Positions 2,852 to 57,047 of a stretch of DNA of 64,000 bases are shown piece after piece. Both the position numbers and the translations under genes were made by a program. The notes below the pieces were generated by a model that was given only the letters and a program-made list of their open reading frames with translations, had not been told where the DNA came from and ran no database searches. This stretch comes from an uncultured archaeon (GTDB lineage: Archaea; CAYFZR01), in the NCBI GenBank assembly GCA_964347835.1, contig CAYFZR010000065.1:19496-83495 (forward strand). Direction: 5' to 3'. Every line of letters begins with the position of its first letter. Within the stretch, counting starts at the first letter, position 1.

Positions 2852-3268
2852 TTAGAAGGGTCATGTCGTCAGAATTAACAATCGTTTTCTTATCAAAAAT
2901 AGTCATTCAAATGTCTTTTTTACCAACGAAGCCCAAACCATGATCTAAAATGAATTATCAGTAATTATTATAAAATCAAAAATCCTTATTTGGGTTCTAT
3001 TTCAAGAATTGGACTCTCTAGTTCATTTTCTGAATACAAAAAGGAAAATTTCATCTATATAGCTGATTATATCGGTAATTGTATTTAAACCGCAAAATAC
3101 TTATGTTTCGTGAAACTTAGTAAAAACACTTGGTGGGGGAGGACAGATAATATGTTTTTATTTTGAATCTGAATTAGCGTTGAAAACCTAGCATTAAACT
3201 TTTTTTAAATTTAACGCCAAGGAGGGGCGCTATGATAAAAATACTAATTAAAAGGGGAGGTGAAATAA

Positions 3269-3844
3269 ATGGAAATGTACAAAATGGGATTGATACTTTC
3301 ACTCCTGCTAATGATAGGATTAGTAGCAGGCTGTATTGGAGCAAAAGAGAAAGCGGCTGCACCCACGACACCAGCCATCCATGCTACAGGAAATATAGTC
3401 ACCATCATACCCTGCTCTGCCCCTGACGTGGATTGCATGTTCGAACAAAAATTCGGTGACGAGCTAATGAAGACCCGAAATCAATACAGTATATTTACGG
3501 GAACCATGGAGGGAACCGGGACCGGCGTGAATAGCCAATTAATAAACCTAAAGACGGGTAAAGCATTCAACTCGGCGTACGGTCACTTTGTCGGAACAGT
3601 GGGCGACTCAGAACCAGGCAGCTTCGCACGCTTCTGGACGTGGACCCTTGATATCCCAGCCTTACGTGGTGAAGAAGGTAATTACACGTGGGAAGGCTAC
3701 CATTGGGTTATCGAAGGCACCGGCATGGGTGGCCTGGAGGGTATCTGTGGAGGAGGAACCTTTGAGGGCTATGGTACGCCTGAGTTAGGCTTCACCACCA
3801 CCTATGACTTCGAGTTCCGCTTCGGCGAAGCTTGCAAAGAGTGA
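3269..3844 (+). CDS. Putative secreted lipoprotein, paralog 1 of a tandem pair
   Basis: 191 aa. Signal peptide with lipobox LVAGC. GGAGGTGA lies 7 nt upstream of the ATG. Confidence 0.6.
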   Translation: MEMYKMGLILSLLLMIGLVAGCIGAKEKAAAPTTPAIHATGNIVTIIPCSAPDVDCMFEQKFGDELMKTRNQYSIFTGTMEGTGTGVNSQLINLKTGKAFNSAYGHFVGTVGDSEPGSFARFWTWTLDIPALRGEEGNYTWEGYHWVIEGTGMGGLEGICGGGTFEGYGTPELGFTTTYDFEFRFGEACKE

Positions 3845-3845
3845 A

Positions 3846-3912
3846 GCTCGCCATAACCATGAGTAAAATAGGTAGCCTAACCACGAGTTAAGCTTCCCCC
3901 ATTTTTTTTGGT
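3846..3912 (+). terminator. Putative terminator (imperfect inverted repeat followed by CCCCC + T8)
   Basis: gaagctcgcc...gagttaagcttccccca tttttttt directly after the stop codon. Conserved in the second copy at 4730-4784. Confidence 0.35.
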
Positions 3913-4158
3913 TAAAATACTAAACAGGATCTTAGGTTGAACTAATATCGGTAACTTTCACAAAATCGAAAATTACTTATATTTCGGAAAATACAAAGTA
4001 ATCTACCTTAATTTAGCGCCGATGGAGGGGGGCAGATAACATGTTTTATTTTAAATCTGAATTAGCGTAGAAATTCTGCTATTAATTATTTTTTTTAATT
4101 TAGCGCCGAGTGTGGGGCGCGATGATAAAAATACTAATTAAAAGGGGAGGTGAAATAA

Positions 4159-4728
4159 ATGGAAATGTACAAAAAGGGATTTTTGCTACTGTTAATGATA
4201 GGATTAGTAGCAGGCTGCATTGGAGCAAAAGAGAAAGCGGCTGCACCCACGACACCAGCCATCCATGCTACAGGACAGATAGTCACCATCATACCCTGCC
4301 AAGCCCCTGACGTGGATTGCATGTTCACCCACAAATTCGACAACGAGATAGTAGACACCCGAACTGCATACAGTATATTTACGGGAACCATTGAGGGAAC
4401 CGCGACCACAGTGCAGAGCCACACGCTAAACCTAAAGACGGCTAAAGCAATCGCCTCGGGGTACGGTCACTTTATCGGAACAGTGGGCGACTCAGAACCA
4501 GGCAGCTTCGCACGCTTCCAATCGGCTACTTGTGATGTCCCACGCTTACGCGGGGAAAAAGGTAATGTCACGTGCGAAGGCTACCTTCGGGTTATCGAGG
4601 GCACAGGCTTGGGTGGCCTGGAGGGTATCTGTGGAGGAGGAACCGAGAAGACCACGGGTTCGCCTGAGTTAGGCTTCACCACCACCTATGACTACGAGTT
4701 CCGCTTCGGCGAAGCTTGCAAAGAGTGA
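4159..4728 (+). CDS. Putative secreted lipoprotein, paralog 2
   Basis: 189 aa with the same signal peptide, lipobox and leader as paralog 1. A central patch diverges (FWTWTLDIPALRGEEGNYTWEGYHW versus FQSATCDVPRLRGEKGNVTCEGYLR). Confidence 0.6.
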   Translation: MEMYKKGFLLLLMIGLVAGCIGAKEKAAAPTTPAIHATGQIVTIIPCQAPDVDCMFTHKFDNEIVDTRTAYSIFTGTIEGTATTVQSHTLNLKTAKAIASGYGHFIGTVGDSEPGSFARFQSATCDVPRLRGEKGNVTCEGYLRVIEGTGLGGLEGICGGGTEKTTGSPELGFTTTYDYEFRFGEACKE

Positions 4729-4931
4729 AGCTTGCCATGACCATGAGTAACATAAGTAGCCTAACACGAGTTAGGCTTCCCCATTTTTTGGTTAAAATAC
4801 TTAATACTTAACAGAACCCTTCTTCAAATAGCGAGATTTACATGTAAGCGCCAACTGTACAGCGTTAAATCCTATTTCTAAATTCATAACCTTAATATAG
4901 GATCGAAAATTCCATCCCTTGAGGTGGTCAA

Positions 4932-6287: not shown

Positions 6288-6523
6288 AGAAGGTGGTAAT
6301 ATTATACTTTATACTGAAATTATCTTATTCTAACCTATCACCCCCTCTCTACACCCCCATATAAAATTTAGAGTAGAGAACAAATATAGAGAAGAAAACG
6401 ACTCATTCGGTACCGTTAATAAAATAATTTTAGGTTAGTTATTATCTTTCTTTTGATCGAACTTTTTTTAAAAGTTCATTGCGGATGGAACGAGCCACAT
6501 TCCATAGCTAGCCACGTTCCATT
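6288..6523 (+). repeat. Copy A of a modular intergenic repeat family (P module + S module + hairpin H module)
   Basis: Contains agaaggtggtaatattatactttatactgaaatta..tatcaccccctctctacacccccatataaa..tttagagtagagaacaaatatagagaagaaaacgactcattcggtaccgttaataaaataatt..gaactttttttaaaagttcattgcggatggaacgagccacattccatagc. Near-identical to 31095-31392 and 56781-57047. Confidence 0.8.
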
Positions 6524-19534: not shown

Positions 19535-20821
19535 ATGGAAAAAGCGATTGAAGAAGGTAAACCTCCGAATAGTTCATGGAAGAAGTTTATCCCATGGCAA
19601 GACATTTCTGAAGAACAGTGGTATGATTGGCGTTGGCAGATCAAAAACATGATCAGGAAGCCAGAACAACTTGTGAAGATCCTTCCTCTTCCTCGGAAAG
19701 AATTTGAGGATATCTGTAGAGTAAGTGATTCGTATCCAATGTTAATCTCGCCGTACTATTTCTCCCTCATTGACCTTGAAAACCCAAACGATCCTATACG
19801 CAAGCAGTCATTTCCTTCCATAGAAGAACTGGAAGATTTGGCTTACGCGGTAGAGGATCCTTTAGATGAAGAAGAAGACCAATCAGTTCCCGGACTCACC
19901 CACCGTTATCCTGACAGAGTCCTTCTAACGCTCACTAACTTTTGCACCACTTACTGTCGTCATTGCACAAGAAAACGTATTCATGGAAAGAGCAAAGGCA
20001 CCTTATCCTCTTACTGTTTAGACAGAGTTTTAGATTATCTTCAGAAACACGAGGAAATCCGTGATATCGTAGTTTCTGGCGGTGACCCACTTGCATTACC
20101 AAATCGTATACTTGAGAAAATACTTAAGGGTCTCCAAGACATTTCCCACTTAGAGATGATTAGGATAGGCACAAGAGTGCCTGTTACCCTACCAATGCGC
20201 CTTTATGATCAAGATTTACTCAGTCTACTAGAAAATTTCGAGAATCTATGGGTTAATACTCACTTCAACCATCCTAGAGAAATAACTATTGAGGCTGTTC
20301 AGGCGGTCAGGAATTTATTAAAGCTTGGAATACCCGTAAACAATCAGACAGTCCTTCTTAATGGAATTAACGACTCAGTAGAAATTATGCGAGAACTTAT
20401 GCTATCTTTGTTGAAAATCAGGGTAAGACCGTATTATCTTTTCCACTGCGATCCCTCAAAGGGAGTATCCCATTTCAGAACTAGCGTTTGGAAAGGTATG
20501 GAGATTATTGAAGGATTGAGAGGACATATATCAGGTTTGGGAGTCCCTACTTATGTAATTGATGCTCCTAGAGGCGGTGGAAAGATTCCCTTAATGCCAA
20601 ATTACGTTCTTTCATATTCGGAGGATGCAATTGTTCTTCGAAACTACGAAGGGATGATAGTAAAGTACTATCCCAAAGGGAAGCCCAAAGACAGGATTTT
20701 CCATCATAATAATTACATAGGGATTATCAAACTATTAGAAGAGGATGCTGATGCTCTAATTCCTTCCGAGACTCCGAGATTGAAAAGGAGAGAGAATAAT
20801 AAGAGTAATTACAAAAAATAA
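19535..20821 (+). CDS. kamA: Lysine 2,3-aminomutase (radical SAM, KamA/AblA family)
   Basis: 428 aa. Radical-SAM motif CTTYCRHCTRK, KamA-type N-terminus (EEQWYDWRWQIKN) and a C-terminal PLP-binding region. Confidence 0.85.
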   Translation: MEKAIEEGKPPNSSWKKFIPWQDISEEQWYDWRWQIKNMIRKPEQLVKILPLPRKEFEDICRVSDSYPMLISPYYFSLIDLENPNDPIRKQSFPSIEELEDLAYAVEDPLDEEEDQSVPGLTHRYPDRVLLTLTNFCTTYCRHCTRKRIHGKSKGTLSSYCLDRVLDYLQKHEEIRDIVVSGGDPLALPNRILEKILKGLQDISHLEMIRIGTRVPVTLPMRLYDQDLLSLLENFENLWVNTHFNHPREITIEAVQAVRNLLKLGIPVNNQTVLLNGINDSVEIMRELMLSLLKIRVRPYYLFHCDPSKGVSHFRTSVWKGMEIIEGLRGHISGLGVPTYVIDAPRGGGKIPLMPNYVLSYSEDAIVLRNYEGMIVKYYPKGKPKDRIFHHNNYIGIIKLLEEDADALIPSETPRLKRRENNKSNYKK

Positions 20822-31094: not shown

Positions 31095-31392
31095 AGAAGG
31101 GGGTAATAATACATTTTATACTGAAATTACCTTATCCTAACTTATCACCCCCTTTCTAAACCCCTATATAAGAGGAGAAGAGAATAACATTAATTTCATA
31201 ACGTAATTATCCTATCTTACCTTATTAACCCCTTTATACACCTCCATATAAAGAAGGGGGTAAATCACCCCTTTCTAAACCCCCATATAATATTTAGAGT
31301 AGAGAACAAATGTAGAGTAGAAAAGGACTCATTTGGTACCGTTCATAAAATAATTATTTATAATATTGCGGGTGCAGCGAGCCACGCTGCAT
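31095..31392 (+). repeat. Copy B of the modular intergenic repeat family (three P sub-modules + S module + hairpin)
   Basis: agaagggggtaataatacattttatactgaaatta...caccccctttctaaacccctatataa...cccctttatacacctccatataaagaagggggtaaatcacccctttctaaacccccatataatatttagagtagagaacaaatgtagagtagaaaaggactcatttggtaccgttcataaaataatt...ggtgcagcgagccacgctgca. Confidence 0.8.
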
Positions 31393-50043: not shown

Positions 50044-51810
50044 TCATAATCTAAAAGAGTCCAATTCCCTCGGAGCCTCCACGCGCAAATCTGGAAGTCT
50101 ATTTTTAATCAACTTACTTAATTGAAGAATATTTTCTTCTTCTCCATGCACTAAAAATATGTTTTCGGGTTTTTTGGATAGAGAATTTATGAAATTCATT
50201 ATCTGTGGTCTGTCTGAGTGAGCGCTGAAAGTATAAGACTTTACTATCATATCCAACTTCAATTCCTTTCCATCCAATTCAATGGCTTTTTTTCCGTCTA
50301 GTATTTCTCTACCCAACGTCCCTTGAGCCTGATACCCCACGAGTACCAATAAGTTTCTCCTGTCATCATGTAGCCTTTTCAGATGATGTAAAACCGGACC
50401 TCCTTTCATCATACCTGATGTTGCGAGTATAATCGCTGGTTCAATTATCTTTTCCCTTCTTTTGGGCGTGATTGTACGGAAAATATCTGACAAAAATGGA
50501 TTATCTCTAGTTTCGTCGATTCTGCTTCTTATGCTCGACCGGAGGAAATCGGAATAGTGGGTGTATACCAAGTTAGCCTCTCTAACCATGCCGTCTATAT
50601 AGACAGGATATTTTTTTAGCGCGCCGGATCGCATGTACTCTTCCAAAACAAGCATGACCTCCTGGGACCTGCCTACTGCTGCTACAGGTATCAAAACGGT
50701 GCCTTCCCTTTCCATGGTTTCCTTTACAACTCTTACGAAGTCTGATTCTACTCCTTTTCTCGATGGATGAAGATCTTCCTTTCCGCCATACGTAGATTCT
50801 ATGATTAGGGTGTCAGCGTCGAATTTTTTTCTTGATATATCGAGTAATCTAGTCTTTCTATAACTAAAATCACCAGTATACAGCAATTTATAGTCATTGA
50901 GAGATAGATGAACTAAACTAGATCCAATAATGTGTCCTGCACTTTGTAATGTCAGTTTCACATTAGGAGATGCTATTACGCTCTTTTCATATTCAAGTGG
51001 TATTGCATGTTTTATAGAAAGTTCTATCCCTTTTTTTGAAAATAAAGGTCTAGAATTTCTTTTTGCCAATCTCAAGGTATCACTCCACAACAAATACATA
51101 ACATCCAGCGAAGGTCTGGTGCAAAATAAAGCGCCCTCAAAGCCATTTTCATATAGGTATGGAACAGCCCCACAGTGGTCTAAATGCGCATGAGAAATGA
51201 CGACAGAGTGTAGTCTATCGATTTCGAATTCGGGTAAATCGAATGATGGTAAAAGAGGCGGAGTTTGAGATGCATCAATGCCGCAATCGAGAAGAACACT
51301 ATCAGAGTTCGTATGAAATAGAAAGCACGACTTTCCTACCTGTCTGCAACCTCCAAGGAAGGATATACGCTTCCACTTTAATTCTTCTTTTTCTCTTAAC
51401 TTTTTGCCTATTTTTTTTAGACTCGCAGATCTTTCTCCGTACAGTACCTTGTTTACATTTCTGGTAGCCTGACAAAGTCTTTCGCGAGTCTCAATAATCT
51501 CAAAAACCCATCCTGTCTGTTTAACAAGGAGTTCCTTTGTCAAATTAACATTTGCCAGAAAGTAATTTAACTTAAGTTCTATAAGAACGACTCCGAAATC
51601 GGAGAAGTAGATATTTTGTATGCCCTTTGGGAATACTTTTTCCAGTAAATCCTTTACTTCATCTTTTTTTGCCCTATTTTTTTCTTCTACCCTTAATAAA
51701 ACTTCTTCTCCATGTTCCTCTTCTAATTCTTTTTTGAAATCAGGGTCAAACAGGTCATCTGTGTCAGAAGTAAAGTACACCAAATCAGTACCTAGACTTT
51801 CCACCTCCAT
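50044..51810 (-). CDS. Metallo-beta-lactamase/beta-CASP ribonuclease, aCPSF1 (FttA)-like
   Basis: 588 aa. HAHLDHCGAVPY (HxHxDH), downstream beta-CASP motifs and RMBL-like C-terminus (LVHGEE). N-terminal about 150 aa are KH-like. Confidence 0.75.
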   Translation of the reverse strand: MEVESLGTDLVYFTSDTDDLFDPDFKKELEEEHGEEVLLRVEEKNRAKKDEVKDLLEKVFPKGIQNIYFSDFGVVLIELKLNYFLANVNLTKELLVKQTGWVFEIIETRERLCQATRNVNKVLYGERSASLKKIGKKLREKEELKWKRISFLGGCRQVGKSCFLFHTNSDSVLLDCGIDASQTPPLLPSFDLPEFEIDRLHSVVISHAHLDHCGAVPYLYENGFEGALFCTRPSLDVMYLLWSDTLRLAKRNSRPLFSKKGIELSIKHAIPLEYEKSVIASPNVKLTLQSAGHIIGSSLVHLSLNDYKLLYTGDFSYRKTRLLDISRKKFDADTLIIESTYGGKEDLHPSRKGVESDFVRVVKETMEREGTVLIPVAAVGRSQEVMLVLEEYMRSGALKKYPVYIDGMVREANLVYTHYSDFLRSSIRSRIDETRDNPFLSDIFRTITPKRREKIIEPAIILATSGMMKGGPVLHHLKRLHDDRRNLLVLVGYQAQGTLGREILDGKKAIELDGKELKLDMIVKSYTFSAHSDRPQIMNFINSLSKKPENIFLVHGEEENILQLSKLIKNRLPDLRVEAPRELDSFRL

Positions 51811-56780: not shown

Positions 56781-57047
56781 CTTTTTTTAAAAGTTCAAAT
56801 GTAACGAGCCACGCTAGAAGGGGGTAATAATACATTTTATACTGAAATTATGCTATTTTACCTCATCACCCCCTTTCTAAACCCCCATATAAAGAAGGGG
56901 GCAATCGCCCCCTCTCTACACCCCCATATAATATTTAGAGTAGAAAAAGGCTCATTTGGTACCGTTTATAAAATATCTTTCTTTTGATTGAACTTTTTTT
57001 AAAAGTTCATTGCGGATGGAACGAGCCACGTTCCATAGCCACGCTGC
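56781..57047 (+). repeat. Copy C of the modular intergenic repeat family (half-H module + 2 P sub-modules + S module + full H module)
   Basis: ctttttttaaaagttcaaatgtaacgagccacgct-agaagggggtaataatacattttatactgaaatta...caccccctttctaaacccccatataaagaagggggcaatcgccccctctctacacccccatataatatttagagtagaaaaaggctcatttggtaccgtttataaaat...gaactttttttaaaagttcattgcggatggaacgagccacgttccatagccacgctgca. Confidence 0.8.

Follow-up and report, generated by a model that had tools for sequence, protein, structure and literature searches.

Tandem lipobox proteins of an uncultured archaeon share a predicted DUF3224-like β-barrel and differ chiefly on one presumed pocket wall

What keeps two neighbouring gene copies nearly identical over long blocks, yet sharply different at codons scattered between them, is the question raised by a tandem pair in a 64,000-nt stretch of DNA (the window) from contig CAYFZR010000065.1 of an uncultured archaeon (assembly GCA_964347835.1). 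The first gene (copy 1; 3269..3844, forward strand) encodes a 191-residue lipobox protein with a DUF3224-like β-barrel, the mature part of which contains four Trp residues; the second (copy 2; 4159..4728, also forward) encodes a 189-residue lipobox protein of the same predicted fold, with no Trp and seven Cys residues in its mature part. An earlier sequence-only reading of this DNA had described two lipobox (LVAGC) proteins of about 190 residues that are about three-quarters identical, and both statements are borne out: the open reading frames (ORFs) end their leaders in LVAGC, and the products are 76% identical (145/191; BLASTP, E 5e-95). Both full-length products are also recorded at NCBI, on a 91,463-bp contig. 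The interpretation that we favour, and that we regard as having an even chance of being right, is that the pair are lipid-anchored, disulfide-stabilized extracytoplasmic ligand-binding barrels with differing specificities; we hold the anatomy, the fold and the signal of selection with high confidence, and the orientation of the pocket and ligand binding with modest confidence.

Across the 189 aligned codons, there are 80 nucleotide differences, which are distributed over codon positions 1, 2 and 3 as 32, 22 and 26, respectively. No change is seen in 137 codons, with one in 32, two in 12 and all three positions changed in 8; if the differences were placed at random, 120 unchanged codons (maximum 130 in 20,000 permutations; p < 5e-5) and 0.5 triple-hit codons (maximum 5) would be expected. 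Purely synonymous differences are confined to eight codons. By the Nei-Gojobori method, the ratio of nonsynonymous to synonymous substitution rates (dN/dS) is 1.31 gene-wide (Nd 64.7 over 435.5 sites and Sd 15.3 over 131.5 sites) and rises to 2.6 for residues 57-120. The diversifying selection proposed in the sequence-only reading is, thus, supported by the dN/dS ratio, the spread over codon positions and the triple-hit codons, and selection seems to have pushed the copies apart at some 41 codons of the mature protein.

The 41 substitutions in the mature protein fall into three zones, namely, residues 57-108 (22), 123-146 (12, or half of the 24 positions) and 165-170 (5), with two elsewhere; the blocks between the zones (15-41, 109-122, 147-164 and 171-191) are nearly identical. 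The divergence had previously been placed in one segment of 30 residues: the clustering does exceed chance, but the single patch does not stand, as over half of the substitutions lie in 57-108. The strings by which that patch had been recognized are correct, WTWTLD and YTWEGYHW in copy 1 being replaced by SATCDV and VTCEGYLR in copy 2, and so are the two new Cys residues of copy 2 (L127C and W141C; copy-1 numbering is used unless stated otherwise). In copy 1, codons 123-146 (WTWTLDIPALRGEEGNYTWEGYHW; 3635..3706, forward) cover the last part of strand F, then the F-G loop, which includes a short helix, and strand G, as assigned by DSSP from the model; the corresponding codons 121-144 of copy 2 (QSATCDVPRLRGEKGNVTCEGYLR; 4519..4590, forward) contain the two extra Cys residues as C125 and C139 (copy-2 numbering).

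Whole-codon swaps set in identical DNA resemble cassette mutagenesis, and targeted hypermutation, for example by a diversity-generating retroelement with one of the copies as template, was considered on this account. All 12 substitution types are present, however, with transitions and transversions in the ratio 28:52, and A occupies 24 of the 80 differing sites in copy 1 (T 24, G 22 and C 10 making up the rest) and 23 in copy 2. Given this lack of adenine bias, a diversity-generating retroelement is excluded and adenine-directed mutagenesis rejected; moreover, the differences are not restricted to a single variable region at the C-terminus but extend over all of the mature protein. Targeted hypermutation is extremely improbable.

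Comparison with the eight closest homologues reveals derived states in both copies: copy 1 has gained W123, W125, Y139, H145, W146 and Y168, whereas F165, G167 and an aromatic at 141 have disappeared from copy 2, in which the two extra Cys residues are new. Neither copy is more than 48% identical to any other protein, and neither patch is found in any homologue; set against their mutual identity of 76%, this indicates a lineage-specific duplication. A tblastn search for further paralogs found no third copy within the window.

Assignment of the two proteins to a family is indirect. The scores against PF11528 (DUF3224), 23.4 bits for copy 2 (E 5.5e-5) and 15.7 bits for copy 1 (E 0.013), fall below the curated gathering score of 25 bits, and an NCBIfam search gave no match to either copy. 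Their thaumarchaeal homologues do clear the PF11528 cut-off (31.5 and 25.9 bits); since the window proteins are tied to the family only via these relatives, we call them DUF3224-like. The fold is better defined: the AlphaFold2 model of copy 2 has a predicted local distance difference test score (pLDDT) of 88.3 and a secondary-structure string equal to that of copy 1, and the predicted fold matches the solved DUF3224 structures 2Q03 (Shewanella denitrificans) and 2OOJ (S. oneidensis SO_1590). The DUF3224 Gly-rich loop motif, SGxGxLxGxxG, which precedes the penultimate strand, is present in the window proteins; it corresponds to the Gly-rich C-terminal motif of the sequence-only reading, seen here as VIEGTGxGGLEGICGGGT, and profile alignment with 2ooj_A sets veGsGmgGLeGICGgg opposite PHSGAGELTGLYGTM. 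Allene oxide cyclase (AOC), the dirigent proteins and the β-barrel Diels-Alderases, of the AOC-barrel-like superfamily, have no detectable sequence similarity to the window proteins, which may share their fold.

The solved members have 131-141 residues, as against 170 in the mature window proteins, and to our knowledge they carry no signal peptide. The parts that are additional in the window proteins comprise the export signal and lipobox, a linker, a region at the N-terminus with an extra strand and the pair C49-C56, and a further pair, C160-C189. The latter consists of the Cys of the Gly-rich loop and that of the C-terminal FRFGxxC, and, because the two residues are conserved jointly in 53 of the 98 family proteins retrieved, a disulfide bond between them is suggested. 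Together with an IHATG strand, the GxGGLEGICGGGT loop and FRFGxxC mark out a secreted branch of the family, as does an N-terminal hydrophobic stretch, present in 85 of the 98 proteins. This branch is very rare: there are nine family matches among 5.8 billion proteins, 91 cluster representatives in a profile search of 1.84 billion, and four family loci (two in Thaumarchaeota and two in Rokubacteria) in GTDB contigs taken at one genome per species.

The sequence-only reading had proposed that the divergent patch is a surface loop and suggested structure prediction as a check. The predicted structure argues otherwise: residues 117-128 form strand F and 139-147 form strand G, with only 129-138 as loop or short helix, and the side chains in question probably face the lumen. 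Their orientation was deduced from strand parity combined with family hydrophobicity (mean Kyte-Doolittle values over an alignment of 81 homologues). In all eight strands, one parity is the more hydrophobic across the family, the means being 1.96 versus -1.00 in strand G and 1.16 versus -0.25 in strand F, and the positions of the Trp/Cys swap (123, 125, 127, 139, 141 and 145) are all on the hydrophobic parity. The same is true of six of the seven differences in strand D (80, 84, 86, 88, 90 and 92); remodelling of this face, thus, includes strands D and E, and residues 165-168 have been altered in addition. For strands D-G together, 14 of the 25 inner-parity positions differ, compared with 5 of the 24 outer ones (Fisher p 0.019). 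On the strength of the model and the family profile, the residues of the Trp/Cys swap probably face the barrel lumen.

Cell-surface proteins are commonly under diversifying selection, and the changes might instead, much in the sense of the sequence-only reading, have remodelled the outer face, copy 1 presenting an exposed Trp-rich patch to the membrane, the S-layer, a sugar, a partner protein or a virus, and copy 2 having lost this patch, e.g. in an arms race or through a change of partner. Differences do occur on both parities, with 12 on the outer; W146R, K68D and Y168T probably lie at the surface, as do the changes in the loop, and the lone coding difference between the two sequenced strains, A131T, lies in the F-G loop of copy 1. 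Against this, the odd-numbered positions in 119-127 and 139-147 are hydrophobic in some 80 diverse homologues (means 1.2 and 2.0, versus -0.25 and -1.0 for the alternate positions), making their exposure to solvent unlikely, and the small residues G105 and A103 opposite Trp, together with a partial small-to-large compensation in strand D (G84A and G86T), are better suited to packing within the lumen. Thus, we consider remodelling of the outer face, including the loss of an exposed patch from copy 2, to be unlikely.

If the lumen-facing orientation is accepted, and if the end residues of the strands flanking each loop are assumed to pair up, the inner positions of strands D-G would form a four-by-four wall with rows 86-105-123-145, 88-103-125-143, 90-101-127-141 and 92-99-129-139. 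Of its 16 positions, 13 differ between the copies and all are highly variable in the family; in the next three rows, by comparison, 2 of 12 differ and most are family-conserved, including F107, G109, V111, G117 and V147. Side-chain volume in this putative wall is lower by 426 cubic angstroms in copy 2 than in copy 1. In the assumed register, L127C and W141C are cross-strand neighbours. The F-G hairpin contains no Cys in 60 family sequences, two in 21 and one in 2, and, because they come nearly always in pairs, it is plausible that C125 and C139 of copy 2 (copy-2 numbering) form a disulfide bond, as the sequence-only reading had suggested.

The same evidence bears on whether one redundant copy has simply drifted under relaxed constraint with no new function. 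A gene-wide dN/dS near 1 would be expected of such drift, and copy 2 has lost residues that are conserved in the family (G167T, where 43 of 80 have G; F165E, where 34 of 80 have F; and the aromatic at 141). Yet the changes are too uneven for drift, as judged by the excess of untouched codons; two new Cys residues have appeared together in copy 2, which agrees with their pairing in other family members; derived states are seen in each copy, and each retains an intact ORF, leader, Shine-Dalgarno site and terminator; and the models of the two are equally confident. In addition, a nearly identical strain (GCA_012974965.1; locus L005) carries both copies, with copy 2 identical base for base and A131T of copy 1 as its sole coding difference. 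Relaxed constraint, therefore, strikes us as improbable.

The leaders are of a type familiar from archaea. Each signal peptide ends in a lipobox that conforms to the archaeal motif [L/V/I][A/S/T/V/I][G/A/S]C (PMC12462473), the sequences being MEMYKMGLILSLLLMIGLVAG and MEMYKKGFLLLLMIGLVAG, each followed directly by the lipobox Cys. As read from the sequence, the signal peptide of copy 1 spans 3269..3334 (forward), with lipobox L18-V19-A20-G21-C22 at nt 3320-3334, and that of copy 2 spans 4159..4218 (forward), with lipobox L16-V17-A18-G19-C20 at nt 4204-4218. They are like those of the Haloferax volcanii lipoproteins of the AliA/AliB pathway in their K-containing n-region, hydrophobic core and V-A-G-C lipobox. 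Lipobox proteins are frequent in Euryarchaeota and DPANN and scarce in TACK archaea (PMC12462473), and they are, thus, common on the euryarchaeal side, where the host belongs; the passenger family is otherwise without one (0 of the 98 retrieved proteins), in agreement with that distribution. The pair presents a clear case of an archaeal lipobox leader on a domain that is exported without a lipobox elsewhere.

Composition also sets the genes apart. The G+C content at third codon positions (GC3) is 0.53 and 0.56 for the pair, compared with 0.28-0.44 in 56 other ORFs of the window, and the leaders (0.42-0.43) lie nearer to host composition than do the mature parts (0.54-0.58); in copy 1, the values are 0.43 and 0.54, respectively. 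As the pair are outliers in GC3, the simplest reading is that the barrel gene was probably acquired horizontally and then given a host-type lipobox leader. Outside the pair, the nearest homologue is P0012 (L007 1275-1808; 45% identical), which is encoded on an archaeal contig of 49% GC and lacks both a signal peptide and any hydrophobic segment at its N-terminus; either it is a cytoplasmic form, or its gene start is miscalled or truncated. As for the recipient, the Cl- channel family (ClC) protein whose gene adjoins the pair and an aCPSF-like protein of the window have their only close relatives, 84-85% identical, in metagenome-assembled genomes (MAGs) named Candidatus Hydrothermarchaeota, and, on this basis, we take the host to be an uncultured archaeal relative of that phylum.

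From these observations, the following course of events may be proposed; the gene anatomy, the fold, the rarity of the family, the substitution statistics and the anomalous composition are shown by the analysis, whereas the side-chain orientation, the disulfide bond, lipidation, horizontal transfer and ligand binding are inferred. A barrel gene would have been taken up from a genome with a GC content of about 50% and given a leader of the host type; tandem duplication, promoter and terminator included, would then have followed. Both products would be small β-barrels of the DUF3224/allene-oxide-cyclase-like fold that act outside the cell, each exported by its Sec-type signal peptide and probably anchored, through lipid on the lipobox Cys, to the outer face of the archaeal membrane. 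Selection after duplication would have separated the 41 or so codons, leaving the remainder nearly identical. The radical changes are in the adjoining strands D, E, F and G, on their hydrophobic side, which probably faces the lumen. The changed region is the family-variable half of the barrel beneath the indel-rich F-G loop, and would correspond to the ligand pocket in this fold. In dirigent proteins and AOC, a pocket of some 463 cubic angstroms lies inside the barrel top, and residues that govern specificity are deep within it (PMC4340379); the sequence-only reading had listed a buried patch as refuting its proposal, but, since the lumen is the binding site in this fold, selection on specificity remains a reasonable explanation for swaps that face inwards. 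The pocket of copy 1 would be filled or lined by W123, W125, W141, Y139 and H145; copy 2 would have Q, A, C, V and L in their place, with about 430 cubic angstroms of side chain removed, and strands F and G stapled together by the new Cys pair. If the pockets have been remodelled in this way, the copies would differ in the ligands that they bind at the cell surface, these being small molecules and probably hydrophobic or aromatic.

A more specific version would be a natural pocket swap, with an aromatic cage lined or filled by Trp in copy 1 and, in copy 2, an open cavity (about 400 cubic angstroms) stapled by a disulfide bond, the two being kept distinct at single-codon resolution in the face of homogenization, either because two surface receptors or carriers are needed for different small molecules or because one copy evades a virus or toxin that uses the other; this we put forward very tentatively. 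If true, a comparison of the ligands would open a first way into the function of DUF3224-like barrels, among them the thaumarchaeal proteins encoded beside 7TM-DUF835 receptors (see below). More generally, these are barrels for which structures, but not functions, have been solved, and a tandem pair with nearly all of its differences on one presumed pocket wall both points to the specificity residues and supplies two natural variants for ligand screening. Current understanding is not overturned by any of this; it is an ordinary, though unusually clear, case of paralog divergence.

The AOC-barrel-like enzymes are trimers with catalytic residues; the window genes are not surrounded by a biosynthetic gene cluster. 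Bacterial lipoproteins of the lipocalin type, such as Blc of Escherichia coli, are lipid-anchored eight-stranded barrels that hold a hydrophobic ligand in the lumen. They would work alike, but differ from the window proteins in barrel topology and family, and no lipocalin is found among the top structural matches.

Several considerations weigh against the proposal. The gene-wide dN/dS is not significantly greater than 1, and, when all eight strands are taken together, inner-parity positions do not differ significantly more often (19 of 47) than outer ones (12 of 48; p 0.13). Side-chain orientation and strand register are deduced from the hydrophobic periodicity of the family and from DSSP strand boundaries, rather than from measured burial. 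The high GC3 could reflect codon selection instead of horizontal transfer. A literature search for DUF3224 returned no paper and neither ligand nor function for any member, the structures 2Q03 and 2OOJ being cited solely as structural neighbours of dirigent proteins; furthermore, the neighbours of the pair (a ClC-CBS channel, an ACT-domain protein and small membrane proteins) give no functional clue. Finally, there is the age of the duplication: silent sites and gene-proximal non-coding DNA are 8-12% diverged, but the distal upstream sequence is about 30% diverged and gapped, so the duplication may be older than the silent sites suggest, these having been held alike, perhaps, by gene conversion or codon selection.

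This last point opens the way to concerted evolution, in which an old duplication would undergo ongoing gene conversion, and only those codons would differ at which selection opposes homogenization. Besides the disparity between distal upstream and silent or proximal non-coding sites, it would account for the long stretches of complete identity, third codon positions included, and for the saturated appearance of the differing codons (72 differences over 132 sites, with transitions to transversions near 1:2). However, within zone 57-108 there are 30 unchanged codons, interleaved with changed ones, that have no synonymous difference, and to produce this pattern conversion tracts would repeatedly need endpoints at the resolution of single codons. 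The figure of 30% is itself soft, as the distal alignment is A/T-rich and gapped: it has 87 of 125 positions identical and 15 gap columns, in comparison with 64 of 69 identical over the 70 nt proximal to the start. We, therefore, judge concerted evolution to be doubtful. The best fit is given by a recent duplication after which roughly one codon in four came under strong positive selection, the absence of silent change from the interleaved codons being the main reason for this preference. Under either account, the copies have been kept different; it is the age and the process that would differ.

The repeat unit is some 880-890 bp in length and takes in about 195 nt 5' and 80 nt 3' of each gene, with 90% nucleotide identity across 891 alignment columns. 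In keeping with the sequence-only reading, leader, Shine-Dalgarno site and terminator are all duplicated. The upstream part of unit 1, 3074..3268 (forward), contains repeat families D2, D3 and D6 and aligns with 3950-4158; the latter, 3950..4158 (forward), is the upstream part of unit 2 and contains repeat family D5. Both copies have a TATA-like A/T-rich box about 55 nt 5' of the start codon (at ~3204-3214 on the forward strand for copy 1), to which a promoter role may be assigned from sequence, and the same Shine-Dalgarno site, GGAGGTGA, spaced 5 nt from the ATG (3256-3263 and 4146-4153, forward). Downstream of each stop codon is a terminator-like hairpin followed by a T-run: for copy 1 at 3874..3909 (forward; hairpin 3874-3894, T-run 3902-3909; fold -13.5 kcal/mol, z -1.5) and for copy 2, with an 8-bp stem, at 4758..4789 (forward; hairpin 4758-4777, T-run 4784-4789; fold -16.6 kcal/mol, z -2.2). 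With a promoter-like region, Shine-Dalgarno site, leader and terminator of its own for each copy, the two genes look to be independently transcribed. A 26-nt motif comprising a TATA-like and a G/C-rich part (TTAATTTAGCGCCGA..GGGG.GC) occurs twice upstream of copy 2 (4008-4033 and 4095-4120) and once upstream of copy 1 (3205-3230), where a 13-nt gap in unit 1 has partly removed the distal occurrence; the copies may be regulated differently. A scan for σ70-type promoters was set aside as uninformative, the host being an archaeon, and the sole match of the duplicated leaders to a known RNA element, GP20-a, is sub-threshold (24.8 bits versus a gathering score of 47.2; E 0.17).

The tandem arrangement has left its mark on the sister assembly, GCA_012974965.1, an accession of which we found no mention in a literature search. 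There, the repeated 5' regions are represented by runs of N (L005 9727-9925 and 10652-10711), and both genes are, therefore, called from an internal Met as 135-residue proteins without a signal peptide; these short calls are an annotation artefact of the tandem repeat, and show how assembly gaps at such repeats can shorten gene calls. In the closest named relative, a Hydrothermarchaeota MAG with a ClC protein 84% identical to that of the window, the contig stops 170 bp past the ACT gene, inside a dispersed repeat. This repeat is an intergenic motif, CACCCCCTTTCTAAACCCCCATAT, that forms part of a palindromic AGAAGGGGG...CCCCCTTTCT element and occurs five times in the window (6339-6362, 31146-31169, 31265-31288, 56867-56890 and 56906-56929), with none expected by chance; its occurrence in the related contig (L008 12436-12459) is at the extreme end, directly past the ACT gene. 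It looks like a repeat of the repetitive extragenic palindrome or miniature inverted-repeat transposable element kind (REP/MITE-like), and may break assemblies.

Gene context in more distant relatives is unlike that in the window. In Thaumarchaeota MAGs (L001 7972-13409 and L004 8053-10516), family genes alternate with genes for membrane proteins of 505-555 residues that combine a seven-transmembrane (7TM; HisKA_7TM-like) region with DUF835, the order in L001 being sensor, barrel, sensor and a second DUF3224-like barrel; this may represent a conserved pairing of receptor and partner. No 7TM-DUF835 gene is present within the window, and the context of a Rokubacteria relative is unlike that of either the window or the Thaumarchaeota.

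The neighbours of the pair in the window also include genes for a YdjM-like protein and subunit C of an A-type ATPase, neither with a functional link to the pair; a B12-dependent ribonucleotide reductase and the β-CASP aCPSF-like protein already mentioned are encoded in the window as well. A lysine 2,3-aminomutase of the AblA type (19535-20821) scores 495 bits, slightly below the equivalog cut-off, and hints at the synthesis of a β-lysine-derived osmolyte in the host archaeon. The KH-domain match (PF17214) recorded for almost all relatives of the β-CASP aCPSF1-like protein (50044-51810), which have about 630 residues, appears to be missing from this protein of 588 residues; its identity to typical aCPSF1 is only some 40%, with a single relative at 85% in a Hydrothermarchaeota MAG, and it may be a divergent paralog.

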